Of a DNA stretch of 64,000 bases, positions 512 to 24,204 are shown piece after piece. The translations under genes and the position numbers were made by a program. The notes under the pieces are model-generated. The model saw nothing but the letters and a program-made list of their open reading frames with translations. It was not told the origin of the DNA and made no database searches. The DNA lies in the NCBI RefSeq assembly GCF_004010195.1, contig NC_057759.1, forward strand, positions 1-64,000. The letters are read 5' to 3'. This DNA comes from Chiloscyllium plagiosum (lineage: Eukaryota). The first letter of the stretch is position 1. Each line of letters starts with the position of its first letter.

Positions 512-676
512 CTATCTTTCACCAGCAGGGGCAGCAGAGTTCTGTGACTCACTCCTCCGAATGTTCTGGTAGATAGACGAGCCATTATTTTCCTGCTTTC
601 TGGCACCCGCATCTTGGACCCTTGTCCTTTCAAGGTGTATTAACGATGCGTAAGTCACATGACTGTCAGTCTCCCT
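512..676 (-). CDS. Last coding exon of the immunoreceptor: RETDSHVTYASLIHLERTRVQDAGARKQENNGSSIYQNIRRSESQNSAAPAGER*
   Basis: Acceptor ttgtcttttctcttgtag|AGG, phase 0; open to TAG at 514-512; ITIM VTYASL and ITIM-like SIYQNI. Confidence 0.8.
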   Translation of the reverse strand, partial: RETDSHVTYASLIHLERTRVQDAGARKQENNGSSIYQNIRRSESQNSAAPAGER

Positions 677-779
677 CTACAAGAGAAAAGACAATGTCTT
701 AATCCAAGGCTCATTGCATTTTCTGACCATTTCTGCAATTGTCCTTAAACAAAGGGGCTGATGGACAGGAAATTGAAGC

Positions 780-2240
780 AGGAATATTGGCCACATGGCC
801 CTTCCATCCTCCTCCAATGGGATTGCCCAAATCAGTCTCCTATTTCCCACTTTCTCCCTTTAGCCTCCAAGTACTCTACCCAAATCATCCTTGAACAACA
901 TTCAATGTTCTGGCCCTGATTGCTTTCTGTGGTAGAGAATTCCACAGTCTCCCCATTCTCTGGGTGAAGACATTTCTCCTCATCTCAGCTCTACAACCTG
1001 TCTCCTTTAGACTATGACCCCTTGGTTTGGAACTCCTCCCCATTACTTCTGTTAGGGGGAACATGCTTCCTGTTTTTACCCTGTTGGAATTGGATAGGTT
1101 TCCTTCCACCCCCAATCTTCCAAACTCTAGTAAGTATAATCCTAACTAATTCAGTCCTTATTTGTTAGTCCTGCCATCTCAGGAATCAGTCTGAGGCAGT
1201 GAAGAAGGCAGTCATTTATTAAAAATAATTAGAACTGAATAAAGGTTACTTTCCCACTTTGAGACCCAACCACCCCACTGTAAGCCTGGAGTTACTTACA
1301 GTCAAAGTCAAATAGCACCAAAACAGGCCCTTCAATCCAATAGTCCATTCTGAACATAATCCCAAACTTCATTGGTTCCACGTGCCTGCGGTTGTCCTAT
1401 ATCCTTTCAAAAATATCTTAATCATGTACTTATCTAAATGGCTTTTAAATATTATAAATTGTGTCTGTATCCATCACTTATTCTGCAAATTCATTCTACA
1501 CACAAATCACTCTGTAAGAAAAAGTGTCAATTATGTCTGTATAAAATCTCTCTCCTCTCAACTTAAAAATGCCCTCTAAATTTGAAACCGCCCACAACTG
1601 CCATTCACCTTATCTATGCCCCTCATTATTTTATAAACATCTATAAAGTCACCTCTTAACCTCCCACACTCCAGTGAAAAATGTCCCAACTTATCAAACC
1701 CCTCCTTATAACTCAAACCTTCAATTTCCAACAACATCCAAGCAAATTGCTTCTGAACCCTTTCCAGCTTAATAATTTCATTCCTATAACAAGGAGACCA
1801 GAACTGGATACAATACTCCAGAACAGACCTCACCACCATCCTGTTTAACCTCAATAGGATATCCCAAATTCTATACTCAAAAGTCTGAGCAATAAAAGCA
1901 AGTATGCTAAACGCCTCCTTAACCTCCCTATCTATATATGGTGCAAACTTCAGAAATCCCCAACGTTCATCAACACCATCAATGGCTCTACTTTTAATTG
2001 TATAGGTCCTGTCTTGTTTGTTTTACCAAAATGCATTACTTCACATTTATCCAAATTTGACACCATCTGCCACTTTCAGCCCATTGACCAATTAATTTGT
2101 GATATTAGATAACCTTCTTCATTATCCACTATATTACTAACCCTGGTGTCATCTGCAAACTTTCTAACTATGCTTTCTATATTCTCATCGAAATCATATA
2201 TATAAACAAGAAACAAAAATGGACTCAGTCTTCCTGGACA
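780..2240 (-). mobile_element. Degenerate CR1 3' fragments (two pieces)
   Basis: LEYCIQFWSP, RLRGDFIDVYKIM, KFADDTRV, VFTQRMGRLWNSLPQ. Confidence 0.85.
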
Positions 2241-2924
2241 CTGAAGCTCTCTATGACGCTGCTTGAAGTTCAAGATCGTGGACCTTAAATGATCAGGTGG
2301 CACTTACTACCAGTCTTTAAAAGCGGCAACTTGTCCATCCAGCTGCATCTGGGTCATTACAATTTGGGTCTGAACACTTTAGTGATGAGTCAGAGCAGTA
2401 GTAGACAAAGAAAAGAAAGCATATGCTTCACCAGATCTCACTAACTGTTCAGAGAATCTGCCAGTTCAGTTGCATAAAGAGCAACAGCAAAAATGTATTA
2501 TCCTGAGTAAATGACATCCTTGCATTGAGGGAGAGCTGATGACACTTTAGTGATGATTGGGTCCAGTTGCTACAAATGTCCTTGATCTCAGCTGTCTACA
2601 GAACACTTTGAGACATGCATTGTTCTGCAGAAAGTGTTAGTTGCATAAAGCTTACAGTAGCTGCCAAGATTAAATAGTCACTGTCGGCTCATGTTTATAT
2701 TTATCAAGCCATGATTTCTGAGCCCTTAGCGCCATTCCTTGTTATGTGTCCATCTTGCATTGCAGCCACCCAGTAGATTAACATATTATGATAGGTATTC
2801 TATTGACAGGTCATTTGTCTCCAGTGGCACACCAGGCATTACAGAATAGATAACACAGGAAAGCCAGATTGGGTACATATTTCCTTCGATCAAGGACATC
2901 AATTTTCTTGAAAACATATACAGT

Positions 2925-3250
2925 CGTAGGATGTGTGTGTGACTGGCTGGGCCAACATTTATTGCCCATCCCTAATTGCCAATAGGGCAGTTAAGAGTCA
3001 GCCACATTGTTGTGTTGTCTGGAGTTATATGTCGGCCAGACTGGGTAAAGATGACAGAATTTCTTCCAAAGAGGACTTTAGTGACTCAGATGGGACTCTG
3101 TCCTGTCAATGGTCTTTATTGGATTCTAAATGCAAGACTTTTATTGAATTCAAATTCACCCCCTTGCCATGGCAGGATTTGCACCCAGGTCACTGGAACA
3201 TCACCTGGGAGTCTGTATAAATAGGCTAGCAATAATACCATTCAGCCCTG
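2925..3250 (-). mobile_element. Old SINE/LINE 3' relic (SacSINE/DeuSINE-like); related pieces at ~6725-6920 and ~61975-62165
   Basis: Shared motif ttattgcccatccctaattgcc...tctggagtcacatgcaggccaga in all three places. Confidence 0.5.
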
Positions 3251-3349
3251 ACCTTAACTTACTAGATCAGAGAGCTAGTTGGGTGTTTGTAACATGGTTC
3301 ATTTGATCACATCCACTTCTAATGATTAATAGATGTGGTTCTATGTCAT

Positions 3350-4930
3350 GCATTAGTTAAATTGAAGTCAATACTTATTATTTAATTGGAGAAAGACTGC
3401 AGAAAGCTGCACACCTAAGGATTTGGGAGTCCTCGTCCGAGAATCTCAAAACAAAAGCTATTGTCCAAGTTAAGCAGGTCATAATAGCCTTTATTTCAAA
3501 GGGAATGGAATATAAAAGTCAGGAGACTTTACTTAAACTATACAAGGCACTAGATATACCACATCTGTGATACAGTAATCAGTCTTAGGCCTTCATATTT
3601 AAGGAGAGATAGGCTTGGCATTGGAGGTAGTCCAGAGAAGGTTCACATTCTCCCCGTGTCTGCGTGAGTTTCCTCCGGGTGCTCTGGTTTCCTCCCACAA
3701 TCCAAAAATGTGCAGGTTAGGTGAATTGTCCAACCTAAATTGCCTGTAGTGTTAGGCTTTATTCCTGATGAAGGGCTTTTGCCCGAAATGTTGATTTTGC
3801 TGCTCCTTGGATGCTGCCTGAACTGCTGTGCTCTTCCAGCACCACTAATCCAGAGAAGGTTCAGTCAGTTGATCCAGATATAGAGGACTGTGTCTTGAGG
3901 AAGGGTTTGGGTAGGTCTAGCCTGTCCTCATCTGGTGTTTAGAAGAAAGAAAGGCGACCTTATTGAAGATTCTCAAATGACTTTACTTGAGGAGAGATGC
4001 AGATCAAGGTTGTTTCCCCCCGTGTGGAAGAGTCTGGGACCAGACAAGTATCAAATCAGAATGTGGCAGGCCGAGGAAGGGGAAAGGGGGTTTGTCGCCC
4101 ATTGAAGACTGAAACGAGGAATTTCTTCTTTTCAAGGGGAAACAGTCTGTTGAATTCTTCACTGCAGAGGGCGGTCAAGGTTAGGTCGTGAAGTATATTC
4201 AAGGCTGAGATTTTTAATCAGGAAGAGGAATTGAAGGTTATGTGATGAAAGTGAAGTTGAGGATTATCAAATCAGCTGCACTAAGTGGAGCAGACCTTAA
4301 GGACCTGTTGCCACTCCTACGTCTGATCATTTTAATGGACTTGGGGAAGAATAATGCGTCTCAGACATAGATGATAAGTGCAGGATCCTACAATCCCACA
4401 ATCCTGGCAGGGCAGGTTAATAGTTAAGAAGGCATTCAGGACACTTCCCTTTATCAGTCGAGGTATAGATTATAAGAGCGGGTAGGTGATATCAGAACCG
4501 AACAGGATTTCGGTGAGGCCACCGCTAGATAACTATAGGAAAGGATGTGATTGCAGTGGAGGGGGTGCAGAGCAGATTCACGGCGATGTTGCCTGGGATG
4601 TGTCACATTTCAGCAATGAGGAGAGGTTGGATAAGCTCGGATTGTTCTGTTGGAGCAGAGAAGGTTGAGGGGTGACCTGATAGAGGTGTATGAGACTGTG
4701 AGAGACACATAGCTGTAAGGCACGTTTCCAATGGGTAAAGGAATCAGTAAGCAGAGGTCATGGATTTAGAGCTAACAGGGGATTTGCAGATAATATTATT
4801 TGTCCAGAGGATGGTGGGCTATCTGGAACTGACTGCCTCTAAAAGTGGGAGATACAGAAATCCTCGTTACATCAAAGAAATATTTAGATGTACAACTGCA
4901 TTGCCATAGCTCCCAGAGGATAAGGGTGAA
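3350..4930 (+). mobile_element. Degenerate CR1 3' fragments with small SINE and Penelope-end inserts (~3640-3855)
   Basis: Decayed RT C-terminal and 3' region motifs (e.g. gagaaggttgaggggtgacctgatagagg). Confidence 0.7.
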
Positions 4931-5021
4931 AAAGCAAAAAAGTGAGAGTTTTGCTTTCAGACCTTTGCTGATAAGAACCGCTTCTTGTCCTGTAAAGGTC
5001 TATGAAGTAACGAGAACTTAC

Positions 5022-5047
5022 TGATTCTCTTCTTTCCCTGATGTAAC
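5022..5047 (-). CDS. Cytoplasmic micro-exon of the immunoreceptor: (G)YIRERRES
   Basis: Long pyrimidine tract tttttcttttctggttgtttctccag| and donor TCA|gtaagt; 26 nt, converts phase 1 to phase 0 exactly as needed to join the flanking exons. Confidence 0.7.
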
Positions 5048-6027
5048 CTGGAGAAACAACCAGAAAAGAAAAAGATTTTAGTGCACAATATGGCTAGGGA
5101 TTGCATTTTCTGTCTCCTTTGGCATTGTGTATCAGTTAAGAAAACGGGGTACACGAGCAGAGGCAGCTGGGCAGTATATGTGCACAGATGACTGAAGGTG
5201 GCAGGACAGGGAGAGAGCGTGGTTACTAAAGCACACAGCATCCAAGAACAGGAGGTGATGTTGAATTTGTACAAGGCACTTGCTGGACATCAGCTAGAAT
5301 ATAGGTGCAGCTGTGTTTACCAAATTATAGAAAAGATATGAATGCATCTCAGTGAGAGAGAGAGCACCGAAGCAGTTTTGATTTTATTTATTGTTGTCAC
5401 ACGCACAGAAACACAGTGAAAAATTTTGTTTTGCATGCTCCACAGGCAGATCATAAAATACAAAGTGCATCAGGGAAACAGAACAGAATGCAGAATACAG
5501 TGTTAAAGCTGTAAGGAAGGTGCAATCAACATTAAAATTTGAGAGGTCATTTCAAAAGTCTGATAACAGCGGGGAAGAAGGTATTCTTTTTCTGTTGTTA
5601 TCTATATTCAAACTTCTTCAGAAGTAATAGAGTGTAGCCAGGCTGAGAGGACTCTATGATTATGTTGGCTGCTTTCCTGAGGCAGTGGGAAATGTAGGTG
5701 GAGTCAGTGGATGGAAAGTTAGCTTGTGTGATAGAGTTACAAGAACCAGGTACCAGGGACGATAACCTCCAACGATGACGATACTGAAAGACTATGCTCC
5801 CTTGGAGAAGCAGAGAGAGAGGGATGTGTTCAAAATCACGAGCAGGGGTTGGACAGAGTCAATAGGGAGAAGCTGTTCCTGCTGACAAGAGGAACAAAAC
5901 TGAGAGTGAGTGGGTGGGGGACTCATAGATTTATGGAAACAAAGCAATTTGGGGAAGAAACATGAAGAATAAACCTTTTCACCCAGCGAGTAGTTTGGGT
6001 GTAGAGTACACTGCCTGGGCCACCTTT

Positions 6028-6347
6028 GTGGGCGGCACGGTGGTACAGTGGTTAGCACTGCTGCCTCGCAGCGCCAGAGACCCGGGTTCAATTCCCGCCT
6101 CAGGCGACTGACTGTGTGGAGTTTGCACGTTCTCCCCGTGTCTGCGTGGGTTTCCTCCGGGTGCTCCGGTTTCCTCCCACCATCCAAAGATGTGCAGGAT
6201 CAGGTGAATTGGCCATACTAAATTGCCTGTAGTGTTAGGTAAGGGGTAAATGTAGGGGTATGGGTGGGTTTCGCTTCGGCGGGTCGGTGTGGACTTGTTG
6301 GGCCGAAGGGCCTGTTTCCACACTGTAATCTAATCTAATCTAATCTA
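6028..6347 (+). mobile_element. HE1-type tRNA-derived SINE with (TAATC)n tail
   Basis: GTGGTACAGTGG A-box-like head, GGTTCAATTCC B box, CR1-like 3' end gggccgaagggcctgtttccacactgtaatc. Confidence 0.9.
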
Positions 6348-7744
6348 AAAAAAAATGTGTTGGAGGTAGGTTCAATGGGGAAGGGGAGTTGGACAGAAAT
6401 GGGCTGCACAAGGGTTTGGGAAGAAAGGCACAAGGGGCTACATTTATGTCAAGCTGTGAAGAAAGAAGTTGGTTTCAGTCAGTCCCAACATACCCACACT
6501 ATCTGATACATTCAATTCCAGATATCCCTGGAGGAGTACAGGTATGCTTGACAAAGCCTTTGTGATAGGCGGAGATGTGTTGGACTACGTTATCTCACTG
6601 AAAGAATGCATCACAGATTAAGGGAATGATGAAGTTCGGTAAGGAATCTCATATGACTTTGAACAGCACTGCAGACCAATGACCGGATTCTGTGTCTATG
6701 TGCAGTAAAACAACAACGGACTGGACCCACCATTTACTGCTCCCATCCCTAATTGTTTCCGAGGAAAGTTCGGTGTTAACCACATTGTTGAGAGTCTGGA
6801 GTCACATGCAGGACCAGACTAGATAGGGAAGGAGATTTCTCTCTCTGAAGGACACCAGTGAACCAGATGGGTTTTTGTTCTGATTTATAATATCACAGTT
6901 TCACGCTCACTGTTAGTAAGACAAAGTTAAAAATCTTTGGGACACTAGCTACCTGATGAAGGAGCAACACTCTGAAAGATGTTACTTTAAAATAAACCTG
7001 TTGGATTCTACACTGATGTTGTGAGACTTTTAACTTTGTCCATCCCAGTCCAATACTGGCACTTCCTCATCATGTTGGTAAGGTGATCGCTTGGTTTGCG
7101 GGTGATGCAAAAATAGATGGGATTGCAAGTGGTGAGTATGCCATGAAAATGGGGTTCAGTGAATGGGCAAAAAACATTGAATATAACATGCAGAAATATA
7201 AGGTGATGCAGGAAGAACAGAGGAGTTGAAGATTATTTAAGCTATGAGTCTGAGGGATTTGACAGTCCTCATCCGTGAATTACAAAAAGCTAGTGTTTAA
7301 ATTCAGCAGGTGAGACCCGATCATATGATTAAGGAGCAGAATTAGGCCCATCAGGTCTCCTCTGCCATTCGATCATGGATAATATCTTTCTCAATCCAAT
7401 CTTCCTGCCTTCTACCCATAACCATTGATCCCCTTATTAATCAGAATCTATCCATCTCTGTCTTAAAGACACTTCATGACTTGATCTCCACAGTCCTCTG
7501 TCGCAGTGGGTTTCACAGACTGACCATCTTCTGGCTGAAGAAATTCCTCCTCATCTCTGTTCTAAAGGGTCGTCCATTCGACGATTGTGCCGTTACGTCC
7601 TTGTCTCTCCTACTCGTGGAAACATCTCCATGTGCACGCTATCCAGGCCTCTCAGTATTCTGTAAGTTAATTGATCACCCCACATCCTTCTAAACTTCAT
7701 CAAGAACAGACCCAGAATCCTCAACTGCACCTAATTTGACAAGT

Positions 7745-10700
7745 TAGGAAAGGTGAGGTCACCCTGTTAGGAGTCTTTTACAGGCCTCCTAATAGTCCTA
7801 GAATCATTGAAGAAAGGATTGGGAAGGTGATTCAGGAGATGAGTGACAGTAATAGGGTGGTTGTTATGGGGGACTTTAACTTTCCGATTATTGATTGGGA
7901 AAGCTATAGCTCAAGTTCGTTAGATGGGACAGTGTTTGTTCAATGTGTGCAGGAGAGTCTCCTGACACAATATGTAGACAGGCCAACAAGAGGTGAGGCC
8001 ATACTGGATTTGGTTCTGGGTAACGAACCAGGCCAGGTGTTAGAATTAGAGGTAGGTGAGCACTTTGGGGATAGTGACCATAATTCGGTGATTTTTACAC
8101 CCGTGATGGAGAGGGATAAGTGTGTACTACAGGGCAAGAATTATAGCTGGGGTAAGGGAAATTATGATGCGGTGAGGCATGACTTAGGATGTGTGGCTTG
8201 GAAAAGTAGACTCCAAGGCAAGAGTGTAAATGATATGTGGAACTTGTCCAAGGGGCAACTATTGAGTGTCCTTGATAATTATGTACCTGTCAGGCAGGAA
8301 GGAAAGGGTCGTGCGAGGGAGCCGTGGTTTAATAAGGAATTGGAATCCCTTGTTAAATGGAAGAGGGCAGCCTATCTCAAGATGAGACGTGAAGGTTCAA
8401 TTGGGGCGATTGAGAGTTATAGGGTAGCCAGGAAGGACCTGAAGAGAGAGCTAAAAGCAGCAAGGAGGGGACATGAAAGGTCCTTAGTCGGTAGGATTAG
8501 GGAAAACCCTAAGGCTTTCTATAGGTATGTTAGGAATAAAAGAATGACTAGGGTAGGAATAGGTCCAGTCAAGGATAGTAGTGGGAAGTTGCGTGTGGAG
8601 GCGGAAGAGATTGGGGAGACACTGAATGAATACTTTTCTTCAGTATTCACTCAGGAACAGGGCATTGTCGATGAGAATACTGAGGCACAAATAAGTAGAA
8701 TGGATGGCCTTGAGGTATGTAGAGAAGAGGTGTTGGAAATCCTGGAAAAGGTGAAAATAGATAAGTCCCCTGGGCCTGATGGCATTTATCCTAGGATTCT
8801 CTGGGAAGCAAGGGAGGAGATTGCAGAGCCATTGGCCTTAATTTTTATGTCCTCTTTGTCTACAGGAGTAGTCCCAGAAGACTGGAGGATAGCAAATGTG
8901 GTTCCCTTGTTCAAAAAGGGGAGTAGGGATAACCCTAGTAACTATAGGCCGGTGAGTCTCACTTCTGTTGTGGGCAAAGTCTTAGAGAGAATTGTAAGGG
9001 ATAGGATTTATGAACATCTGGATAGGAATAATGTGATCAAGGATAGTCAGCATGGTTTTGTGAAGGGCAAGTCGTGCCTCACAAACCTTATTGAATTCTT
9101 TGAAAAGGTGACGAAGGAGGTTGATGAGGGGAAAGCGGTAGATGTGGTATATATGGATTTTAGTAAGGCGTTTGATAAGGTTCCCCATGGTAAGCTACTT
9201 CAAAAAATACGGAGGTATGGCATTGAGGATGAGTTGGAGGTTTGGATTAGGAGTTAGCTGGCTGGAAGAAGACAGAGGGTAGTAGTTGATGGCAAAGGTT
9301 CATCTTGGAGTGCCGTCACTAGCGGTGTTCCACAAGGATCTCTTTTGGGACCATTGCTGTTTGTCATTTTTATAAATGACCTGGAAGAGGGGTTAGAAGG
9401 TTGGGTGAGCAAGTTTGCGGATGATACAAAAGTCGGACGAGTTGTTGACAGTGAGGAAGNNNNNNNNNNNNNNNNNNNNNNNNNNNNNNNNNNNNNNNNN
9501 NNNNNNNNNNNNNNNNNNNNNNNNNNNNNNNNNNNNNNNNNNNNNNNNNNNNNNNNNNNNNNNNNNNNNNNNNNNNNNNNNNNNNNNNNNNNNNNNNNNN
9601 NNNNNNNNNNNNNNNNNNNNNNNNNNNNNNNNNNNNNNNNNNNNNNNNNNNNNNNNNNNNNNNNNNNNNNNNNNNNNNNNNNNNNNNNNNNNNNNNNNNN
9701 NNNNNNNNNNNNNNNNNNNNNNNNNNNNNNNNNNNNNNNNNNNNNNNNNNNNNNNNNNNNNNNNNNNNNNNNNNNNNNNNNNNNNNNNNNNNNNNNNNNN
9801 NNNNNNNNNNNNNNNNNNNNNNNNNNNNNNNNNNNNNNNNNNNNNNNNNNNNNNNNNNNNNNNNNNNNNNNNNNNNNNNNNNNNNNNNNNNNNNNNNNNN
9901 NNNNNNNNNNNNNNNNNNNNNNNNNNNNNNNNNNNNNNNNNNNNNNNNNNNNNNNNNNNNNNNNNNNNNNNNNNNNNNNNNNNNNNNNNNNNNNNNNNNN
10001 NNNNNNNNNNNNNNNNNNNNNNNNNNNNNNNNNNNNNNNNNNNNNNNNNNNNNNNNNNNNNNNNNNNNNNNNNNNNNNNNNNNNNNNNNNNNNNNNNNNN
10101 NNNNNNNNNNNNNNNNNNNNNNNNNNNNNNNNNNNNNNNNNNNNNNNNNNNNNNNNNNNNNNNNNNNNNNNNNNNNNNNNNNNNNNNNNNNNNNNNNNNN
10201 NNNNNNNNNNNNNNNNNNNNNNNNNNNNNNNNNNNNNNNNNNNNNNNNNNNNNNNNNNNNNNNNNNNNNNNNNNNNNNNNNNNNNNNNNNNNNNNNNNNN
10301 NNNNNNNNNNNNNNNNNNNNNNNNNNNNNNNNNNNNNNNNNNNNNNNNNNNNNNNNNNNNNNNNNNNNNNNNNNNNNNNNNNNNNNNTTCTATGTTCTAT
10401 GTTCTATGTTCTATGTTCTATGTTCTATGTTCTATGTTCTATGTTCTATGTTCTATGTTCTATGTTCTATGTTCTATGTTCTATGTTCTATGTTCTATGT
10501 TCTATGTTCTATGTTCTATGTTCTATGTTCTATGTTCTATGTTCTATGTTCTATGTTCTATGTTCTATGTTCTATGTTCTATGTTCTATGTTCTATGTTC
10601 TATGTTCTATGTTCTATGTTCTATGTTCTATGTTCTATGTTCTATGTTCTATGTTCTATGTTCTATGTTCTATGTTCTATGTTCTATGTTCTATGTTCTA

Positions 10701-10768
10701 TGTTCTATGTTCTATGTTCTATGTTCTATGTTCTATGTTCTATGTTCTATGTTCTATGTTCTATGTTC
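7745..10768 (+). mobile_element. Young 5'-truncated CR1-clade LINE (HER1-like) ORF2 with endonuclease end and RT; gap inside; (TTCTATG)n tail
   Basis: 476-aa ORF with VMGDFNFP, GDSDHN, KSPGPDGIYP, NYRPVSLTSV, YMDFSKAFDKV; one TAG at 9255; then GPLLF..KFADDTK. Confidence 0.95.
10388..10768 (+). repeat. (TTCTATG)n microsatellite, about 54 copies, expanded CR1 3' tail
   Basis: Perfect heptamer run; the same motif ends the CR1 copies at ~15430 and ~53045. Confidence 0.95.
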
Positions 10769-11810
10769 TTAAGTCCTTCATCTTGGGATCATTCTTGTGA
10801 ACCTCCTCTGATCCTCCTATAAGGCCAGTACATTCCTTCGATACAGGGCCTAAAGCTGCTCATAATATTTCAACTGCAGTCTGACCAGATGCTTATACAG
10901 CAGCAGCAGTAGATCCCTGCTCTTGTATTCTAGCCCTCTTGAAATGAATTCTAGCATTGCATCTGACTTCATAACTGCCAACTGAAACTGCCTATTAACC
11001 TGCAAAGAATCTTGAACTAGCACTCCCAAGCCACTTTATGCTTCAGATTTCCCTAGTCTTTCCCGAAAATCGACTGCCTCTTCTCACCAATGTGTGTCGG
11101 GAAGGCAAATGGAATGCGGCCTTTATTTCGAAGAGAGGGCAGTATAAAAGTGGGGGTGCTTCTACTAAAACTGTCCAAGTCACTAGTCAGACCATACCTG
11201 GGATAAAGGTTTGGAGGTCCGTATCTGAGGAATGATAAGTTGGGGATTGGAGGCAGTTCAGAGAAGGTATGATCCCAGCTACAGTCCGTCTAATGAGGAA
11301 CTAGTTTGGACCTGTCCAATGAAGGTGTAGGTTGGGATTGTCCTGATTGGAGTTTAGAAGCAGAGGCAACTTTATTGAAGATTCTTCGAGGGACTTGACA
11401 GGGGAGATTCAGAGAGACGTTGTGTCCCCTTGTAAGGGTGAATCTAGGATCAAAGGGCATTGTCTCAGAACAAAGGAGGCACCCATTGAAGATGGAGGTG
11501 AGGAGGAATTTCTTCATGCCAAGGAGAACGAATCCATGGAATTCCTTATATCAGAGGACAGTCGAGGCTGGATCATGAAATATATTCAAGGCTGAGATTC
11601 TTAACCGGAAAGGAACATTGAGGACTATGGGGAGAAAATAAGAGTTGAAGATAATTAGATCAGCCACAATCTTGTTGAACAGTGGAACAGACTTGATGGG
11701 CTGAATGACCTAGTTCTGATCCTATAGTCGTATGGAGCCCATTCCTAGAAGATATAATCTTGTGTTTCCTTTCTGACAGAGCAATGCAAAGCTATTTTGA
11801 AACATTTTAC

Positions 11811-11876
11811 CTTCTTCTTTCCTCTTTGCTTGAACAACAGAGTACACAATATCGCCAGAAGTGGAGCCACTGACAT
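11811..11876 (-). CDS. Cytoplasmic exon 1 of the immunoreceptor: (D)VSGSTSGDIVYSVVQAKRKEE, ITIM IVYSVV
   Basis: Acceptor ttgttctttgtttcag|AT and donor AAG|gtaaaa; 66 nt, phase 1/1, in frame with the TM exon; matches ITIM consensus (I/V/L/S)xYxx(L/V). Confidence 0.85.
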
Positions 11877-12506
11877 CTGAAACAAAGAACAATATTTTTA
11901 AGTTTCGAGAAATAACTCGTGCAGGATTCTGGAGATCTGAGACCAATACAGAGCAGTGGAGAAACTCAGCAGGTCTGGCAGCATCTGTAGGGAGAGAGAG
12001 AACTCGTGTTAATTTTTCAGATCCAGTGTGAAACTCCATCAGAATGAAGGAGGGAGAGGTGGAAAGGTATTGGAATCAATGCTCTGACCGACGAAAGCAA
12101 ACATGCCAAACATCTTGTTAACCACCCTGCCTGCTTGTGATGTTACTTTCATAAAACTATGTAACTAAACCCCTAGGTCTCTCTGCTGATTAAGACTACC
12201 CAAGCCCTTACTATTATGTGTATAAGTCTTGCCCTTCTGTGTTTTACCAAAATACTTGAACTTGCATTTACTTTCCACTCCTCAATCCATTGACCAAATT
12301 GATTGAGGTTTCTTAGTAATCTTGCATAATCTTCCTCACTGCTGACTCGACCACCAATTTTGGTGCTATTTGCAAATGTACAGACCATGCTTCCCAAATC
12401 ATATATATGACAAACAACAGCTGACCAAGCACCAATCCCTACTTTTACCAGCAGCTGTACAAGGAAACGTTCCCTTTGTCTCTCACGTGCTCTGTCACAA
12501 ACTGAC

Positions 12507-12650
12507 CTCTGCTGGGTTGGGAATTGGAGATGTCCTGAACTCGTTCTTTCTGACGGAGTTTGCAAATAGCAAACAGAAGCAGGAAAGTGATGAGGAGAAC
12601 AGCAGCAACAGCAAAACCTCCAACCAGCAAGGCAAAAATCACAAGGGGAT
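12507..12650 (-). CDS. Transmembrane exon of putative inhibitory immunoreceptor: (D)PLVIFALLVGGFAVAAVLLITFLLLFAICKLRQKERVQDISNSQPSR
   Basis: Acceptor ctttgtctgtgttccag|AT and donor GAG|gtcagt; 144 nt, phase 1/1; about 25 uncharged hydrophobic residues followed by basic stop-transfer KLRQK. Confidence 0.85.
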
Positions 12651-12819
12651 CTGGAACACAGACAAAGTCACTAAATTTAACATGCTCGGTGACAAAGTAG
12701 GGAACTGATTCTATTCAAATAGCAGAGCATGCTGGGAGGGCCAGATGCATAAGGGTTAGTGTACGTAGAACCTCAACTGATTTTAGTTATGATAGTATAA
12801 AAGTAGCTGAACGAACTTT

Positions 12820-15436
12820 TCATGAGGACTCGTCTACTGAGGTAGTGTGAGCTGAGGTTAGAAACGGGAGATAAGAGGTCATACTGCTTCGAGTTTTTTT
12901 ATAGGCCTCTGCAGAGTTCCAGGGAGGTGGAAGAGAGGTTACCAAAATTATTCTGGAGAGGAGTGAAAGGAACAAAGTGGTCATTATGGGGGACTTTAAC
13001 TTCCCCAATGTTGACCGGATATGCTTTAACTCTAGTATGTCGGATGGATCAGTTTTATCCACTGTGTACAGGAGGGTTTCCTGACACAGTATGTCGAAGG
13101 GCCACACTGGATCTGGGGCTTGGTAATGAGCCAGGCCAGGTGTTTGGTTTAGTTGTAGGTGAACATTTTGGAGAGAGTGACCATAATTCAGTTATGTTTA
13201 GTTTAGCGATGGAAAGGGATAGGTACATGCCACACGTTCTGAGTTATTGACGGGGTAAGGGCAATTATAATGCAAGTAGGCAAGAATTAGGATGCATAGA
13301 ATGGGGTAGCAAAATGCAGGGAATGCAGACAATGGAAATGTGGAGCTGGTTTAAGGAACAGATATTGTGTGTCCTTGATAGGCATGTCCCTGTCAGGCAG
13401 GGAAGAAGTGTTAAGGTAAGGGAACTGTGGTTTACTACAGAAATTGCATTTCTTGTTAAGCAGAAGAAGGAGGCTGATGTGTTGATGAGGCAGGATGGTT
13501 CAGGTGAGGTGATGGGGAGTTACAGATCCACTAGGAAGGATTTAAAGGGAGAGTTAAGAAGAGCAAAGAGAGGACATGAGCAGTCTTTAGCCAAAAGAAT
13601 GAAGGAGAACCCGAAAGCTTTCTACAGGTACATGAGGAATAAAAAAATGACTAGCGTAGGAATAAGGCCAGTCAAAGACAGAAGTGGGAAGTTGAGTGTG
13701 AAACCCTGTGGAGATCGGAGAGATGCTAAACGAACATTTTTCATCAGTGTTCACTCAGGAAAAGGAGAATATTGTAGAGGACAAGAATGAAGTACGAGAT
13801 ATTAGACTAGAAAGGATCGAGGTTAGTTACAAACAGGTGTTAGCAATTCTAGAAGGAGTGAAAGTAGATAAGTCCCCTGGCCCAGATGGGATTTATCCAA
13901 GGATTCTCTGGGAAGCTAGGGAGGAGATAGCAGAGCCTTTGGCTTTGATATTTGAGTCATCATTGTCTACAGGTTTAGTACCAGAGAACTGGAGGATTGT
14001 AAATGTTGTGCCCTTGTTCAAGAAGGGCAGTAGAGGTGACCCAGGTAATTATAGACCATTGAGCCTTGCATCTGCTGTCGGAAAAGTTTTGGATAGGATT
14101 ATAAGAGATAGGATTTATAATCATCGAGCAAGCAGCAATTTGATTTCAGATAGTCAACATGGTTTCATCAAGGGCAGGTTGTGTCTCACAAACCTCATTG
14201 ATTTTTTTTGAGAAGGTGACCAAGCATGTAGATGAGGGTGGGGCAGTTGATGTGGTATACATTGACTTCAGTAAAACCTTTGATAAGGTTCCACATGGTA
14301 GGCTGTTGGAGAAAATGCAGAGGCACGGGACTGAGGGCAATTTAGCAGTTTGGATTAGAAACTGGCTTTCTGAAAGAAGGCAGCAAGTGGTAGTTGATGA
14401 AAAATATTCAGCACGGAGTCCAGTTACTAGTGGTGTGCCACAAGGATCTGTTTTGGGACCAGTGCCATTTGTGTTTTTTTTATAAATGACTTAGATGCAG
14501 GCATAGGTGGATGGATTAGTAAATTTGCAGATGGCACTAAAGTCGGTAGAGTAGTGGACAGTTTGAAAGAATGTTACAGATTGCAGGTGGACTTGGATAA
14601 ACTGTAGAACTGGGCTGAGAGGTGTCAAATGGATTTCAGTGCAACTAAATGTGAGGTGATTTACTTTGGGAAGAATAACAGGAAGGCAGAGTACTGGGTC
14701 AATAGAAATATTCGTGGTAGTGTGGATGTACAGAGGGATCTTGGAGTCCATGTACATAGATCCCTGAAAGTTGTCACCCAGGTTGATAGTGCTGTTAAGA
14801 AGACATACAGCATTTTAGACTTCAGTGGTAGAGGGATTGAGTTCCAGAGCCACAATATCATGCTGCAACCAGACAAAATGCTAATGCGACCATACTTGGA
14901 ATATTGTGTACGGTTGTGGTCTCCATATTTCGGAAAGGATGTGGAAGCATTGAGAAAGGTGCCGAGGAGATTTACCAGGATGCTGCCTGGTCTGGAGGGA
15001 AGGTCTTATGAGGAACAGCTGAGAGACTTGGGTCTGTTCTCGTTGGCAAGAAGAAAGCTAAGAGGGGCTTTGATAGAGACACACCAAATGATCAGAGGAT
15101 TAGATAAGGTAGACAGTGAAAGTCTTTTTCCGAGGATGATGATGTTAGCTTGTATGAGGGGGCATAACTATAAATTTAAGGGTGATAAATTTAAGACAGA
15201 TGTCAGAGGCAGGTTCTTTACTCAGAGAGTGGGTAAGGGTGTGGAATGCCCTACTTGCTGATGTAGTCAACTCAGCCAAGATAATTAAGTCACATTAGGG
15301 AGATTTAAACAATCCTTGGGTAAGCACATGTATGATAATGGAATAGTGTAGGGGGATGAGCTGAGAATAGTTCACAGGTCGGTGCAACATTGAGGGCCGA
15401 AGGGCCTGTTCAGCGCTGTATTGTTCTATGTTCTAT
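12820..15436 (+). mobile_element. CR1-clade LINE ORF2, frameshifted, with 3' tail
   Basis: ORF pieces GESDHN, KSPGPDGIYP, DFSKTFDKVPH, GVPQGSVLGP, YLEYCV; ends ttgttctatgttctat. Confidence 0.93.
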
Positions 15437-18400
15437 ATCTGGCCCAGTTTAGGATGTGGCCCAGTGTGACATCTAACCTCGTTTAGGATAAGGCCCAACT
15501 AAGGATGAAGTCCAGTTTAGGTGAGGCCAAATTTACAAAGGGGCCCACTTTACATTTGGGCCAAGTTTACAATCTGAACAAAATGTGTGGGAGGTTCCCC
15601 TTACAGTGAGGCCCAGTTTAGGCTGAGGCCTAGTTTGGGATGTGGCCCAGTTTAGGGTGTGGCCCAGTTTGGAATATGGCCTAGCTTAGTTTGAGGCCCA
15701 GTTTAGGGTGAGGCCCACTTTGGGATGTGATCTAGTTTAGCGTGAGGCCCAGTCTCAGATGTGACCCAGTTTATGTTGATGCCCACTTTGGGAATGTGGC
15801 CCAGTTTGGAGTAAGTCCAAATATAGGATGTGTCCAAACTATAATGAATGCAGTTTGTGATGTGGCCCAGTGTAGGGTGAGGCCTAGTTGGGGATGTGGC
15901 CCAGCTTAGGCTGAAGCCCACTTTGGGATGTGGCACAGTTTAGGGTGAGATCGAGTTTGGGATGTGGCCCAGTTTAGGGTGCTGTCCATTTGGGGCTGTG
16001 GCCCAGTTTAGATTGAGGCCCAATTTTAGATGTGTTACAGTTTAGGGTGAGGCCCAGTTTGGGATGTGGCCCAGTTTAGAATGAGACCCATTTTGGGATG
16101 TGGCCAATTGTAAGTGTGTGGCCCAATTTGGGATGTAGCCCAGTTTAGGGTGAAGCCCAGTTTGGAATGTGGCCCAGATTAGGGTGCAGCCCAAATTGGG
16201 ATGTGGCCCAGTTTAGGATGAGGCCATGTTTGGAATGTGGCCCAGGTTAGGGTGTGGCCAAAATTGGGATGTGGCCCAGTATAGGATGAGGCCCTGTTTG
16301 GAATGTGGCCCAGGTTAGGGTGCGGCCCAAATTGGGATGTGGCCCAGTTTAGATTGAGGCCCAGTTTTAGATGTGTTACAGTTTAGGGTGAGGCCCAGTT
16401 TGGGATGTGGCCCAGTTTAGAATGAGACCCATTTTGGGATGTGGCCAATTGTAAGTGTGTGGCCCAATTTGGGATGTAGCCCAGTTTAGGGTGAGGCCCA
16501 GTTTGGAATGTGGCCCAGGTTAGGGTGCGGCCCAAATTGGGATGTGGCCCAGTTTAGGATCAGGCCATGTTTGGAATGTGGCCCAGGTTAGGGTGCGGCC
16601 CAAATTGGGATGTGGCCCAGTTTAGATTGAGGCCCAGTTTTAGATGTTTTACAGTTTCGGGTGAGGCCCAGTTTGGAATGTGGCCCAGGTTAGGGTGCGG
16701 CCCAAATTGGGATGTGGCCCAGTTTAGGATGAGGCCAGGTTTGGAATGTGGCCCAGGTTAGGGTGCGGCCCAAATTGGGATGTGGCCCAGTTTAGGATGA
16801 GGCCCTGTTTGGAATGTGGCCCAGGTTAGGGTGCGGCCCAAATTGGGATGTGGCCCAGTTTAGATTGAGGCCCAGTTTTAGATGTTTTACAGTTTCGGGT
16901 GAGGCCCAGTTTGGAATGTGGCCAATTGTTAGTGAGTGGCCCAATTTGGTAAGTTGCCCAGTTTAGGTTGAAGCACAGTTTGTGATGTGCCTCTGTTTAG
17001 GGTGAGGCTCAATTTGGGATGTGTCCAGTTTTGGCTGAGTCCCACTTCAGGATGAGGCCCAGTTTAAGATGAGGTCCAGTTTACTATGAGGCCTGGTTTG
17101 GGATGAGACACACTCTTGGATGAGGCCAACTTTAAGTTGTGGCATGGTTTATAGTGAGTCCCAATTTAGGATGGGCCCAGTCTCCGATGAGGCTCAATTT
17201 TGGATGATATCCAGCTTCGTATGAGGTGCAGTTTAGAATGAGATCCAGTGTAATATCTGGCCCAATTTAGGATGAGGTCAAGTGTGACATCTGGCCCTGT
17301 TTAGAATGAGACACAATGTAGGATGAGGTCAAGTTTACGAATACGTGCACTTTACATTTGGGCCAAGATTACAATCTGAAAACAAAAATTTCTGTGAGGC
17401 TCACCTTACAGTCAGGCCCAGGTTGGGAGTGGCTCAATTTATGTTGATGCCCAGTTTAGGATGTAGCCTAGTTCAGGGTGAAGCCAGTTTGGTATCCGGC
17501 CCAGTTTAAGGTGAGATCCAGTTTGAGCTGTGGCCCAGTTTAGGTTGAGGCCCAGTTTGGAATATGGCCTGGTTTAGGGTGAGGCCCAGTTTGGAATGCA
17601 GCCCAGTTTAGCGTGAGGCCCCATTTTAGGATGTGGCCCAGTTTAGGTTGAGGCCCAGTTTGGAATATGGCCCAGTTTAGGGTGAGGCCCAGTTTGGAAT
17701 GCAGCCCAGTTTAGGGTGAGGCCCCATTTTGGGATGTTGCCCAGTTTAGGTTGAGGCCCAGTTTGGAATATGGCCCAGTTTAGGGTGAGGCCCAGTTTGG
17801 AATATGGCCCAGTTTAGGGTGAGGCCCGGTTTGGAATGTGGCTCAGTTTAGAGTGAGAATTCAGTATGAGATGTGACCCAGTTTAGGGTGAGGCCAACTT
17901 TGGGATGTGGACGAGTTTAGTGTGAGGCCAGGTCTCTGATGTGGCCCAGTTTAGATTGAGTCCCAGTTTGGGATGTGGCTCAGTTTAGAGTGAGATACAG
18001 TTTGGGATGTGATCTAGCTTAGGCCGATGCTGAATTTGGGATGTGGCCTAGTTTAGTGTGAGGCCTAGTCTCGGGTGCGACCCAGTTGGGGATGAGGCTC
18101 AGTTTCGTGTGAGGCCTAGCATAGAATGTGTCCCAGTCTATAATGAAGCTCAGTTTGTGATATGGCCCAGTTTAGGGTGAGGCCCAGATTGAATGTGGCC
18201 CAGTTTAAGATAAGACCTCATTTGGGATATGGCCCGGTTTAGGGTGAGTCTAGATTAGAGTGTTGCTGGAAAAGCACAGCAGGTCAGACAGCTGATGAAG
18301 GGCTTTTACCCAACCATCGATTTTCCCGCTCCTCGGATGCTGCCTGACCTGCTGTGTTTTTCCAGCAACACTAATCTAGACTCTAATCTTCAGCATCTGA

Positions 18401-19759
18401 AGTCCTCAATTTCACCCATTTTAGAGTGAGGCCCAATTTGGGATGTGGCCCATTTTAGGCTGAGTCCCAGTTCAGGATGAGGCTCGGTTTATAGAGGTGC
18501 AATTTGGTTGTGGCCCAGTTTAGGTTGAAGCCCAGTTTTGTATGTGGTACATTTTAGGGTGAGGCTCAGTTTGGGATGTGGCCTACGGTAGTGTCATACC
18601 CAATTTGGGATGAAGCTCAGTTTAGTTTGAGGATAGTTTGTCATGTGGCTAAGCTGAGGGTGAGGCCTAGTTTGAGATGTGGCCGAGTTTAGTGTGAGGC
18701 CCAATTTGTGATGTGGTCCAGTTTAGGATGAGGACCAGTTTAGTATGAGGCTTGGTTTGTGATGAGACACACTTTTGGATGAGGCCCAGGTTAAGTTGTG
18801 GCCAGGTTTATAGGGCGTTCCAATTTAGGATGGGCCCAGTCTCCAATGAGGCACAATTTAGATTGACACCCAATGTAGAATGAGGCGCGGTTTAGGATGA
18901 GGCCCAGTGTAATATCTGGCCCGATTTAGAATAAGACCCAGTGTGACATCTGGCCTAGTTTTAGACGGGGGCCACATTTAGGATGCGGTTCATTTTATGA
19001 AGAGACCCACTTTACATCTGGTCCAAGTTTATGATCTGAAAAACATTTGTGGGAGGCTCACCTGACAGTAAGACCCAGTTTGCGATATGGCCCAGTTAAG
19101 GTTGAGGCACAGTTTGGGATGTTTCCCCGTATTGAGTAAGATTCAGTTTGGGATGTGTCTAGGTTTACTTTGAGGCCAAGTTTGGGCTATGGCCCAGTTT
19201 AGGGTGAGGCTCCATTTGGGATGAGGGACAGTTTAAGGCGAGGCCCAGTTTAGGATGACGCCCTGTCTTTGATGTGGCCCAGTCAAGGGTGAGGCCCAGT
19301 TTGGGAAGTGACCCAATTCAGGATGAGGCCCACTTTGGGATGTGGACGAGTTTAGTGTGAAACCCCAATTAGGGATTAGGCCCAGTTTAGTGAGAGAACC
19401 AGTTTGGGGTGTGGCTCAGTGTAGGGTGAGGCCCAGTTTGGGATGTGGCCCAGTTTAGGCTGAGTCCCAGTTCAGGATGAGGCCCAGTTTAAGATGAGGT
19501 TGATTTTAGTATGAGACCTAGTTTGGGATAAGACCCACTTTTGGATGTGGCCCGGTTTAAGTTGTGGCATGGTTTCTACTCAGTCCCAATTTAGGATGGG
19601 TCCAATCTCCGATGAGGCGCAATTTTGGATAGCACCCAGCTTCGTATGAGGCACAATGTAGGATGAGGCCCAGATTAATATCTGGCACAATTTAGGATGA
19701 GGCCAAGTGTGACATCTGGGCTCTGTTAAAATGAGGCCCAACGTAGGATGAGATCCAGT

Positions 19760-20142
19760 CGGGATGGGCCCATTCACCGCTGCCGATTCGCCTCCGCCGA
19801 TTAGCCACTGCCCTTTCACCGCCAAGGACACTTCGCCACCATCCTTTGGCTGCTCAGGATGATTCACCACCGCAAGTGTTTGTAACTTATTTTTATGTAT
19901 AAACCAATAAAATGATATTTATTTCACCTTTTTTATCAATATGTACTATGTTGTTGTATAAATAAAGGGGACTGAGAAGTATGAAAGAACACGTGAGAGG
20001 GAAAACAATCACTGCATATATATATTTCCGATTGCGAATACTCTCAAGAGGTCAATCGACCTCATTGGCAAACGCTGGTGGCGAACCCGGCAGTGGCTAA
20101 TCGGTGGCGGCGAATGTGCCACGGCGAATCGTCACCAACCCA
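19760..20142. mobile_element. Non-autonomous DNA transposon (MITE) with ~65 bp imperfect TIRs, inserted in the satellite
   Basis: Left end cgggatgggcccattcaccgctgccgattcgcctccgccgattagccactgcc versus reverse complement of right end tgggttggtgacgattcgccgtggcacattcgccgccaccgattagccactgcc; AT-rich core; flanks gatccagt / ggtccagt. Confidence 0.85.
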
Positions 20143-22957
20143 GGTCCAGTTTAGGATGAGGTCAAGTTTACGAATGGGTGCACTTTACATTTGGGCCAAA
20201 TTTATAATCTGAAACAATATCTGTGTGTGGCCCACCTTACAGTGAGCTCCAGGTTGGGATGTGGCCCAGTTTAGGGCTTAGCCTAGTTCAGGGTGTGGCC
20301 CAGTTTGGGATGTGGCCCAGTTTAGGGTGAGACCCAGTTTGGGATGTGGCCCAGTTTAGGGTGAGGCCCAGTTTGGAATGCAGCCCAGTTTAGGGTGACA
20401 CCCAGTTTGGGATGTGGCCCTGTTTAGGGTGAGGCTCCATTTGGGATGTGACCCAGTTAAGTTTGAGATCCTGTTTCAAAATTGGCCCAGGTTAGTTTTG
20501 GCAAAGTTGGGATGTGGTCCAGTTTAGGTTGAGGCCCATTTTGGAATGTGGCCCAGATTAGGGTGAGGCCCAGTTTTGGTTGACGACCACTTTGGGCTGT
20601 GGTCTAGTTTAGTGTGAGGCCCAGTCTCGGATGCTGCCCAGTTTAGGTTGAGGCCCAGTTTGGAAGGTGGCACAGTTTAGGGTAAGATCCAGTTTGGGAT
20701 GTGGCCCAGTTTAGGGTAAGGCCCTGTTTGGAAAGTGGCACAGGTAATTGTGAGGACAAAGTTGGGATGAGGCTCAATTTAGGGAGAAGCCCAGTTTGGG
20801 ATGTAGCCCAGTTTAGGGTGAGTCTAGTTTAGAGTGGTGCTGGAAAAGCACAGTACGTCAAGCAGCATCAGAGGAGCAGGAAAATCGATATTTCAGGCAA
20901 AAGCTCTTTATCATCATTCCTGATGAAGGGATGTTGCCCAAAACATCGATTTTCCTGCTCCTCAGGTGCTCCCTGACAGTGTTGTGCATTTCCAGCAACA
21001 CTCTAACCTTGACTCTGATCTCCTGCATCTGCAGTCCTCACTTTTGCCCAGTTTGGGGTGAGTCCCAGTTCAGGATTAGGCCCAGTTTAGGGTGAGGCCC
21101 AGTTTTGGATGTGGGACAGTTTAGAGTGAGGGCCAGTTTATGATGTGGCCCATTTTAATGTGAGACCCAGTTTGGAATGTGGCCCAGTATAGGAGAAGGT
21201 CCATTTTGGGAGGTGGCCTACATTAGCGTGAAGATCCAATTTAGGATTAAGCCCAGTTTAGTTTGAGACCCAGTTTGTCATATGGTTCAGCATAAGCTGA
21301 GGCCCAGTGTAATATGTGGCCCAGTTTAGGGTGAGGTACACTTTGGGATGTATCCTATTTCAGGGTGAGGCCCAATTTGGGATGAAGCCCAGTTTAGGGT
21401 GAGGCCCAGGTGGGATGTGGCCCAGTTTAGGAAAAGGCCTTGTTTGGCATGTGGTCCAGTTCAGAATGAGGCCCAGTTTAAGGTGAGGTCCAGTTTAGGA
21501 AGAGGCCTGGTTTTTGATGAGACCCACTTTTGGATGAGGCCCAGTTTATGTGGTGCAAAAGTTTATAGTGAGTCCTAATTTAGGATGGGCCCAGTCTCCG
21601 AAGAGGCTCCATTTGGAATGTCACCCAGCATAGAATGAGATGCAGTTTAGGATGAGTCCCAGTGTAATATCTGGCCCAATTTACAATGAGACCCAGTGTG
21701 ATATTTGGCCCAGTTTAGTATGAGGCACAGTTTAGGAAGAGGTCCAGTTTAGGATGAGGTCAACTTTACGAATGGGTGCACTTTACATTTGAGCCAAAAT
21801 TACTAACTGAAAAAAAAATTGTGTGAGACTCACTTTACAGTGAGGCCCAGGTTGGGATGTTGCCCAGTTTATGTGGATGCCCAGTTTAGGATGTAGCCTG
21901 GTTCAGGGTGATGCCCAGTTTAGAATCTGGCCCAGTTTCGTGTGAGATCCAGTATGGGCTGTGGCCCAGTTTAGGGTGAGTCTCACTTTGGGATGTGGCA
22001 TCATTTAGGGTGATCCTCAGTTTGGATTTGGCACAGATTAGGGTGAGGCCCTATTTGGGATGAGACCCAGTTTAGGTTGAGGCCCTGTTTCAACAGTGGC
22101 CTAGTTTAGAGTGAGGCCCAGTTTGGAATGTGGCCCAGTTTTGGCTGAGGTCCAATTTGAGAGGTGGCTTAGTTTTAGTTGAGGTCCAATTTGGGATGTG
22201 ACCTAGTTTAGTGTCAGATCCAGTCTCGGATGTGGCCCAGTTTAGGGAGGGATCCGGTTTGGGTTATAGCTCTGTTTAGAGCGAGATCCAGTTTGGAATG
22301 TGATACAGTTTAGGGAGAGGCCCAGTTGGGAATGTGGCCCAGTTTATGGTGAGGCCCAGTTGGGAAAGTATCCCAGTTTAGGGTGATGCCCAGTTTGGAA
22401 TGTCACCCAGTTTAGGGTGAGACCCAGTTTGGAATGTCACCCAGTTTAGGGTGAGATCCAGATGGAATATCACCCAGTTTAGGGTGAGACCCAGTTTGGA
22501 ATGTGACCCAGTTTCGGGTGAGGCCAGTTAGGAATATATCCCAGTTTAGGGTGAGGTCCAGTTTGGAATGTGGCCCAGTTTAGGGTGAGACCCAGTTTGG
22601 AATGTGGCCCCATTTAGAGTGAGAACCGTTTGGAATGTCACCCAGTTTAGGTTGAGGCCCAGTTTGGAATGTGGCCCAGTTTATGGTGAGGCCCAGTTTG
22701 GAATGTGGCCCAGTTTAGGGTGAGGCCCAGTTTGGAATGTGGCCCAGTTTAGGGTGAGGCGCAGCTGGGAATGTGTCCCAGTTTAGAGTGAGCCACAGTT
22801 TGGAAGGTGGCCCAGTTTAGGGTGAGGCCCAGTTTGGAATGTGGCCCAGTTTATGGTGAGACCCAGATTGAAATGTGGCCCAGTTTAGGGTGAGGCCCAG
22901 TTTGGAATTTGTCCCAGTTTAGGGTGAGGCCCAGTTTGGAATGTGGCCAAGTTTATG

Positions 22958-23555
22958 GTGAGGAGAAAATGAGGACTGCAAATGCTGGAGAACAGAGCTT
23001 AAAATTGTTGCTGGAAAAGCACAGCAGAGCACGCAGCATCCAAGGAACAGGATAATCGACGTTTCGGGCATGACCCCTTCCTAAGGAATGAGGAAAGTGT
23101 GTCCAGCAGGCTAAGTTAAAAGATAGGGAGGAGGGACTTGGGGGAGGGGTGTTGGAAATGTGATAGGTGGAAGGAGGTCATGGTGAGGGTGATAGGCCGG
23201 AGTGGGGGTGGGGGCAGAGAGGTNNNNNNNNNACCTGCATGTCCTTGGTGGAGTGGGAGGGGGAGATGAAGTGTTGAGCCACGGGGTGGTTGGGTTGGTT
23301 GGTCCGGGTATCCCAGAGGTGTTCTCTGAAACATTCCGCAATTAGGCGGGCTGTCTCCCCAATATAGAGGAGGCCACATCGGGTGCAGCGGATGCAGTAA
23401 ATGATGTGTGTGGAGGTGCAGGTGAATTTGTGGTGGATATGGAAGTGTCCCTTGGGGCCTTGGAGGGAATCTTTGAGAGAAAGTGAGGGCAGGAGATGCT
23501 GGAGATCAGAGCTGAAAATGTGTTGCTGGAAAAGCGCAGCAGGTCAGGCAGCAGT
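22958..23555 (-). mobile_element. Penelope-like 3' fragment and terminal repeat inside the satellite
   Basis: Minus-strand YCIRCTRCGLLYIGET-like GIY-YIG segment plus the gctggaaaagcacagc terminal motif. Confidence 0.75.
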
Positions 23556-24204
23556 TTCTGGTGAGACCCAGTTTGGAATGTCACCCAGTTTAGGGTGATG
23601 CCCAGTTTGGAATATCACCCAGTTTAGGGTGAGATCCAGTTGGCATGTCACCCACTTTAGGTGAGATCCAGTTTGGAATGTCACCCAGGTTAGGGTGAGA
23701 CCCAGTTTGGAATGTGTCCCAGTTAAGGGTGAGGCCCAGTTTGGAATGTGGCCCAGTTTAGTGTGAGGCCCAGTTTGGAATGTGGCCCAGTTTATGGTGA
23801 GGCCCAGTTTGGAATGTGGCTCGGTTTAGGGTGAGGCCCAGTTTGGAATGTGGCCCAGTTAAGGGTGAGCCTCAGTTTGGAATGTCACCCAGTTAAGGGT
23901 GAGGCCCAGTTTGGAATGTGGCCCCGTTTAGTTGAGGTCCAGTTTGGAATGTGGCCCAGTTTATGATGAGGCCCAGATTGGAATGTCACCCAGTTAAGGG
24001 TGAGGACCAGTTTGGAATGTGGCCCAGTTTAGAGTGAGTCCAAGTTTGGAATATGGCCCAGGTTAGGGTGAGGGGCAGCTGGGAATGTGTCCCAGTTTAG
24101 AGTGAGACACAGTTTGGAATGTGGCCCAGTTTAGGGTGAGGCCCAGTTTGGAATTTGTCCCAGTTTAGGGTGAGGACCAGTTTGGAATGTGGCCCATTTT
24201 GTGG

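Follow-up and report, generated by a model that had tools for sequence, protein, structure and literature searches.

Does the beginning of a bamboo shark contig carry a working gene for an inhibitory immunoreceptor, and to which receptor family would such a gene belong? The question arises from the first 64 kb of contig C50 (8,079,144 bases) in assembly G000 of Chiloscyllium plagiosum, a stretch of 64,000 nucleotides that we refer to as the window. A first-pass annotation, made from the letters alone, had joined four minus-strand exons with AG/GT sites and phases 1/1, 1/1, 1/0 and 0/stop into the transmembrane (TM) segment and tyrosine-rich tail of an immunoglobulin (Ig) superfamily receptor resembling FCRL proteins. 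Our analysis leads to a divided answer. The exons are genuine and the family is very probably homologous to FCRL, as judged from its sequences, and the copy in the window itself is likely a dead TM-plus-tail fragment of a shark FCRL-like gene that was segmentally duplicated after a break associated with a long interspersed nuclear element (LINE).

When rechecked, the four exons (Table 1) agreed with the first-pass annotation in sites, phases and peptides, and its guess of a shark genome was right. A pyrimidine tract precedes the AG acceptor in each of the four, and once spliced they form a frame of 132 codons plus stop in which methionine does not occur. The TM exon has seven matches in the assembly, itself included, all of them on C50, and the other six are 87-93% identical; of the ten matches to the last exon seven lie on C50. 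Exon boundaries are placed identically in the paralogues, and the RefSeq models of bamboo-shark paralogues use the junctions proposed for the window copy, in the same exon order. A database search with the last exon returned homologous proteins: five of six candidates, sharing 81% identity, were bamboo-shark models that carry the names FcgRI-like or FCRL4/5-like. Because of these paralogue matches, conserved boundaries and shark Fc receptor- or FCRL-like models, the four-exon structure is not due to chance. The gene had been called hidden, which holds for the window copy and not for the family, whose paralogues are already modelled in RefSeq. The last exon of the window copy reads through the stop of the full-length copy C and gains 12 residues, and no database protein of 96 amino acids or more carries this exon (the best match being the 81% of the five candidates). 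Among reads over 10780-15400, one X1 contig spans the TM exon and differs from it at 17 of 146 positions, and one X2 contig splices the TM exon to tail exon 1; both, presumably RNA of a paralogue or relative, are uninformative on expression of the window copy. Over the same region, dataset X10 gave zero depth across the TM exon in the roughly 2% of it that was read, and nothing from X11 aligned.

What the window copy lacks is its entire 5' half. Leader exons reach at best 24 of 42 bases in the window, as against 37-42 of 42 in full copies; none of the four Ig domains was found in the window and the next 40 kb by tblastn, regular expressions likewise brought up no Ig exon upstream of the TM exon, and phmmer gave a best E value of 0.3 for Ig domains in the upstream part of the window. 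The nearest matching Ig exon on C50 lies at 2.25 Mb (in a stricter first look, genome-wide, with 53 matches among 84 scored). No in-frame start codon was found upstream, the frame itself being without ATG. Homology to the intron between the last Ig exon and the TM exon of full copies stops at 12759, about 110 bases above the TM exon, and never resumes. At this point a reverse-transcriptase remnant begins (presumably of a CR1 element), followed by a satellite of 17/34-bp units, about 15 kb long, and by an assembly gap, above which there is more LINE DNA together with histone genes. Sister copies A (C50:6.38 Mb) and F (C50:6.43 Mb) are 92-95% identical and have the breakpoint in common, and a fourth copy (C50:5.39 Mb) is likewise without Ig exons upstream. 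Sister F is collinear with window positions 10857-15450 at 90.5% and continues into the same satellite (C50:6430939-6435860, 5 kb there) and then, 9 kb upstream of its TM exon, into a decayed histone H2B, the whole stretch being free of N gaps. Since sister F shows the same order without a gap, at least one member has truly lost its head, and the loss is older than the duplication.

The exons of these headless copies have diverged about as much as their introns. Divergence is 0.07-0.08 in their exons and 0.060-0.065 in their introns, and dN/dS of the window copy is 1.27 against A (131 codons) and 1.07 against F (78 codons), compared with 0.53 against copy C. Private changes were counted in a headless clade made up of the window copy, A, F and two unplaced last exons, and amounted to 24 nonsynonymous and 2 synonymous ones, against 6 and 7 in copy C (Fisher p = 0.003). 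Purifying selection is absent from the headless copies in this small sample. In sister A a GT donor and the third tyrosine are gone, and the clade is without the stop that ends the frame of copy C. With neither leader nor Ig exons, no ATG and no purifying selection, a working receptor gene at the window locus finds no support, and we infer that no protein is made from it. The likely course of events is that a LINE-associated break removed the leader and Ig exons and that the remaining TM-tail module was then copied with its neighbouring DNA by segmental duplication and is now drifting.

The nature of the family could be fixed through the ectodomains of its paralogues, in keeping with the earlier suggestion of an FCRL-like receptor with an inhibitory-type Ig-superfamily tail. 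Full genes consist of two leader exons of 31 and 30 nt, between which the signal peptide is divided (copies B and C show this), followed by as many as four Ig exons and then by the same four 3' exons as in the window; model P0001 corresponds in its exons to copy C (C50:5.12-5.17 Mb). Relatives came from ten shark species among 23 matches and from two more among named representatives, that is 12 sharks, all auto-annotated. The 514-residue model P0003 finds human FCRL5 as its best PDB match, collinear along four domains (E 1e-45), with FCRL4 next (5e-15), and the shark first domain (D1) searched alone finds FcgRIII and FCRL5 as best matches. Neither LILR, KIR, PECAM-1 nor CD22 occurs among the 55 PDB matches of P0003 at E <= 1e-6, and no LILR or KIR among the best 60 of 122 matches of D1; the relation to LRC receptors that had also been proposed finds no support. 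We built a FastTree phylogeny from 115 Ig domains of 17 proteins (82 columns, no non-FCRL outgroup, with a few domains overlooked by the rule used for cutting), in which the first domains of the shark proteins group with tetrapod D1 (0.93), those next to the membrane with D5 (0.96) and the extra domain of the long shark forms with D4 (0.87), and with shark domains 2 and 3 sitting in a poorly resolved D2/D3 group. The tyrosine-motif tail lies on exons apart from the uncharged TM segment, as in FCR and FCRL genes. The second leader exon is 30 nt in both copies measured and not the exactly 21 bp given as an FCR/FCRL feature in excerpts of PMC7940838. This lowers the likelihood of FCRL homology without excluding it, because only a fraction of the Xenopus XFL genes follow the 21-bp rule, according to excerpts of PMC2413239. 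As proxies for synteny, PRCC had no match in the assembly and none of seven S100 matches fell on C50; the TM family of TCR zeta and FcR-gamma (PF11628) gave a single match, in L088 (G000:C12:49769721-49769807), and the FCRL-linked markers CD5L/KIRREL1, SLAM/CD2, DUSP23 and IGSF9 did not occur in 20 sampled 10-kb stretches of C50 between 7.0 and 8.05 Mb. We say FCRL-like rather than FCRL because the 21-bp rule fails and the proxy markers did not establish synteny; taken by itself, homology of the shark family to FCRL seems to us highly likely.

The tail belongs to the same picture. Of 28 shark relatives listed, from nine species and with many isoforms, 20 keep VTYA(S/T/Q)L and YQN, and 19 of these 20 also keep the first tyrosine motif of the tail (IVYSVV in the window copy); the remaining eight of the 28 have no TM segment, a short tail or another tail. 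Two ITIM-like motifs (immunoreceptor tyrosine-based inhibitory motifs) followed by a terminal YxN are common to FCRL models of sturgeon, frog, turtle, bird and rodent. In the shark relatives the third tyrosine motif has S, D, E or G at position -2 and I, V or F at +3. Set against the ITIM consensus, it is better taken as YxN than as ITIM because its -2 residue varies. The tail had been described as a triple ITIM: three tyrosines are indeed present and two of the motifs are ITIM-like, and on these sequences the whole reads better as two putative ITIMs with a terminal YxN motif than as three ITIMs. YxN is described in excerpts of PMC4810170 as a Grb2-type binding site, and the ITIMs of LILRBs recruit SHP-1, SHP-2 and SHIP according to excerpts of PMC4825776. 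By analogy, intact shark paralogues would be type I receptors on leukocytes, probably B cells, in which ligand engagement may lead to phosphorylation of the two ITIMs and recruitment of SHP-1, SHP-2 or SHIP, together with Grb2-type binding at the terminal YxN.

Several observations weigh against the window copy being a dead fragment. It keeps an open frame, three tyrosines and all seven splice dinucleotides, for which the neutral chance since the split from F or A is about 0.2, and its own private changes, 8 nonsynonymous and 1 synonymous, do not differ significantly from those of C (p = 0.07), the counts being small. Immune receptors can also evolve fast. A gap of 500 N lies upstream, and three tail-less D1 exons (C50:3.95, 4.00 and 5.01 Mb) form a clade of similar depth, 87-91% identical to each other (in an identity table from which the 5.227-Mb row, being out of register, was left out), which could be displaced 5' halves. 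On this account the window would hold part of a complete, working inhibitory FCRL-like gene whose Ig exons were split off merely by mis-scaffolding at the gap. That possibility draws on the fragmented state of the assembly (101,977 contigs), on the similar counts of D1 (10), TM (7) and last exons (10), with several Ig exons having no tail nearby, and on the intact reading frame; we consider it improbable in view of the gap-free sister F with its identical order of LINE, satellite and histone, intron homology that does not pick up again beyond the LINE, TAA stops in two of the three candidate D1 exons (the D2 match of the third holds a TAG), and the missing purifying selection.

A different way to keep the locus alive would be an inhibitory adaptor without ectodomain, begun from a new upstream first exon in LINE-, satellite- or histone-linked DNA, its amino-acid changes being adaptive. 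No in-frame ATG and no candidate first exon were identified, sister A is broken, a deletion private to the window copy lies beside its TM acceptor, and such a protein is not in the database, so that we regard this adaptor as highly improbable even though the open frame and splice sites are retained, the module occurs in three copies and the nonsynonymous share (24 of 26) is slightly over neutral (p = 0.06). A third alternative concerns the family and not the locus: Ig receptors from a sister lineage (PECAM-1-, LITR- or LRC-like) might merely resemble FCRL. The match of all four domains to FCRL5, with FCRL4 next, the lack of PECAM-1, CD22, LILR and KIR among the 55 PDB matches and a tail signature common to bird, turtle, frog and rodent FCRL models all argue against such a lineage, as do domains of D1, D4 and D5 type, given that LITRs are without D3-D5 (excerpts of PMC2413239). 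In its favour are the longer leader exon, proxy markers that do not show FCRL-linked synteny, the RefSeq name PECAM-like for some members of a neighbouring subfamily, and a domain tree lacking a non-FCRL outgroup. On balance we find a sister lineage quite improbable and retain a decayed fragment of an FCRL-like gene as the likely identity of the window copy.

Upstream of the gap the window contains the remnant of a histone H2A gene, with a promoter-like region and 3' end, and an intact H2B gene (Table 1); further histone genes lie at C50:70.4 kb, 73 kb, 96.5 kb, 5.358 Mb and 6.468 Mb, interspersed with FCRL-like copies. Histone linkage is also found at human FCGR1A. Decay is widespread: six of the ten D1 exons are broken. 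A second FCRL-like subfamily (P0133 type, named PECAM-like or FCRL2-5-like in RefSeq) was matched by 70 of 70 scored exons, out of 264 candidates, and 54 of these 70 are spread over C50 from 0.22 to 7.08 Mb, an open frame being kept in many. One of its Ig exon types had 40 scored DNA matches, and all 18 that were translated were broken. A decayed Ig exon 2.9 kb above the TM exon of sister A was considered as an alternative ectodomain and rejected: it belongs to this subfamily and this broken type, and has no match in the window. An arginine marks the start of the TM segment in four shark models (P0021, P0025, P0026 and P0033), whose tails measure 10-45 residues, and these models might possibly be activating partners of the inhibitory forms. 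The locus is a roughly 7-Mb birth-and-death cluster of FCRL-like and histone genes with receptors of paired type.

Table 1. Features of the window, with positions counted from its first letter
Feature	Position	Strand	Remarks
Last exon with ITIM-like VTYASL and YxN motif SIYQNI	512..676	-	165 nt, phase 0/stop; TAG end
Tail exon 2	5022..5047	-	26 nt, phase 1/0; AG acceptor, GT donor
Tail exon 1 with ITIM-like IVYSVV	11811..11876	-	66 nt, phase 1/1; AG acceptor, GT donor
TM exon (uncharged helix)	12507..12650	-	144 nt, phase 1/1; AG acceptor, GT donor
Site of 29-31 nt deletion	12662..12663	-	Private to the window copy among four compared; 12 nt above TM acceptor
LINE-type reverse-transcriptase remnant	12760..15440	+	At breakpoint; common to sister copies at C50:6.43 Mb and 6.38 Mb
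Satellite, 17/34 bp, about 15 kb	15441..30386	.	Where Ig exons would be; strong GC skew
Assembly gap, 500 N	30442..30941	.	Upstream of TM exon; source of the mis-scaffolding caveat
Histone H2A remnant	48586..48705	-	Promoter-like region, last 39 codons and 3' end only; first two thirds gone
Intact histone H2B gene	49958..50338	-	126 aa; part of duplicated histone/FCRL unit

Other observations were made along the contig. A copy at C50:5415126-5438612 (minus strand) has D1, D2 and D3 and then tail exons 2 and 3 only, gap-free and without D4, TM exon and tail exon 1; D3 and tail exon 2 could be spliced together in phase. A third receptor type on C50 is represented by a compact gene in L094 (C50:7250001-7260000), at 3527-9147 of the minus strand: it comprises four or more Ig-like exons, together with a frame that resembles a TM segment, and has weak PDB matches to FceRI-alpha (E 4e-6) and CEA. 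In L092, a minus-strand frame of 311 codons at 7656-8588 (C50:7.158 Mb) encodes a seven-TM receptor, which we take to be GPR139-like from its look. In the whale shark, the last residues of the FCRL D1 model P0070 resemble an antisense frame of the promoter region of the window H2A, hinting that histone and FCRL fragments may be interleaved there too.

Taken together, the window copy is likely ordinary debris of an immune gene cluster with fast turnover, and its intact relatives matter more. FCRL and indeed all Fc receptors are said to be absent from cartilaginous fish in excerpts of papers from 2014 (PMC4016189), 2017 (PMC5742104) and 2026 (PMC13337447), and the last of these, a review, asks how cartilaginous fish achieve Fc-type phagocytosis. 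An intact shark family contradicts this repeated claim, and the contradiction is the point of interest. In the open literature, with subscription journals mostly outside that scope, we found no characterisation of a shark FCRL family, which is auto-annotated and apparently unstudied. An FCRL-like family in sharks would shift the likely origin of FCRL to the jawed-vertebrate ancestor, and the intact members offer concrete proteins for antibody-binding tests. It is conceivable, if rather doubtful in its full extent, that sharks possess a multi-megabase cluster of genuine D1-D5 FCRL genes, in which genes are born and lost rapidly and inhibitory forms are paired with activating ones bearing the TM arginine, that FCRL thus predates bony fish, and that shark IgM, IgW or IgNAR have their missing Fc receptors among the intact members.

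How does the shark family compare with known systems? With human FCRL5 and FCRL4 (PDB 9loc, 9mbz) and FCRL3 its full-length paralogues share four collinear Ig domains, a split leader with a 31-nt first exon, a phase-1 TM exon, an uncharged TM segment and a tail spread over several exons, in which two ITIM-like motifs are followed by a terminal YxN(I/V); they differ in the second leader exon (30 nt in the shark, 21 in human), and the window copy is reduced to TM and tail. The RefSeq bamboo-shark models P0001-P0009 (among them XP_043539744.1, XP_072422780.1 and XP_060712762.1; 'high affinity IgG Fc receptor I-like' or 'FCRL4/5-like') have the same four 3' exons as the window copy, but also a leader and three to four Ig domains, and they end right after the YxN. 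The Xenopus XFL genes, in excerpts of PMC2413239, are similar as a large expanded family with gene fragments, inhibitory members whose TM segment is uncharged and whose tyrosine-bearing tail spans several exons, and short-tailed members that carry an arginine where the TM segment starts. The activating XFL members have an NxxR motif in the TM segment and bind FcR-gamma, whereas the four short-tailed shark models have the arginine without the exact motif. Teleost LITRs, in excerpts of PMC4810170, likewise combine ITIMs with a Grb2-binding YxN motif in the tail of an Ig receptor, but they have only D1 and D2 in common with Fc receptors, whereas the shark family also possesses domains of the D4 and D5 type.

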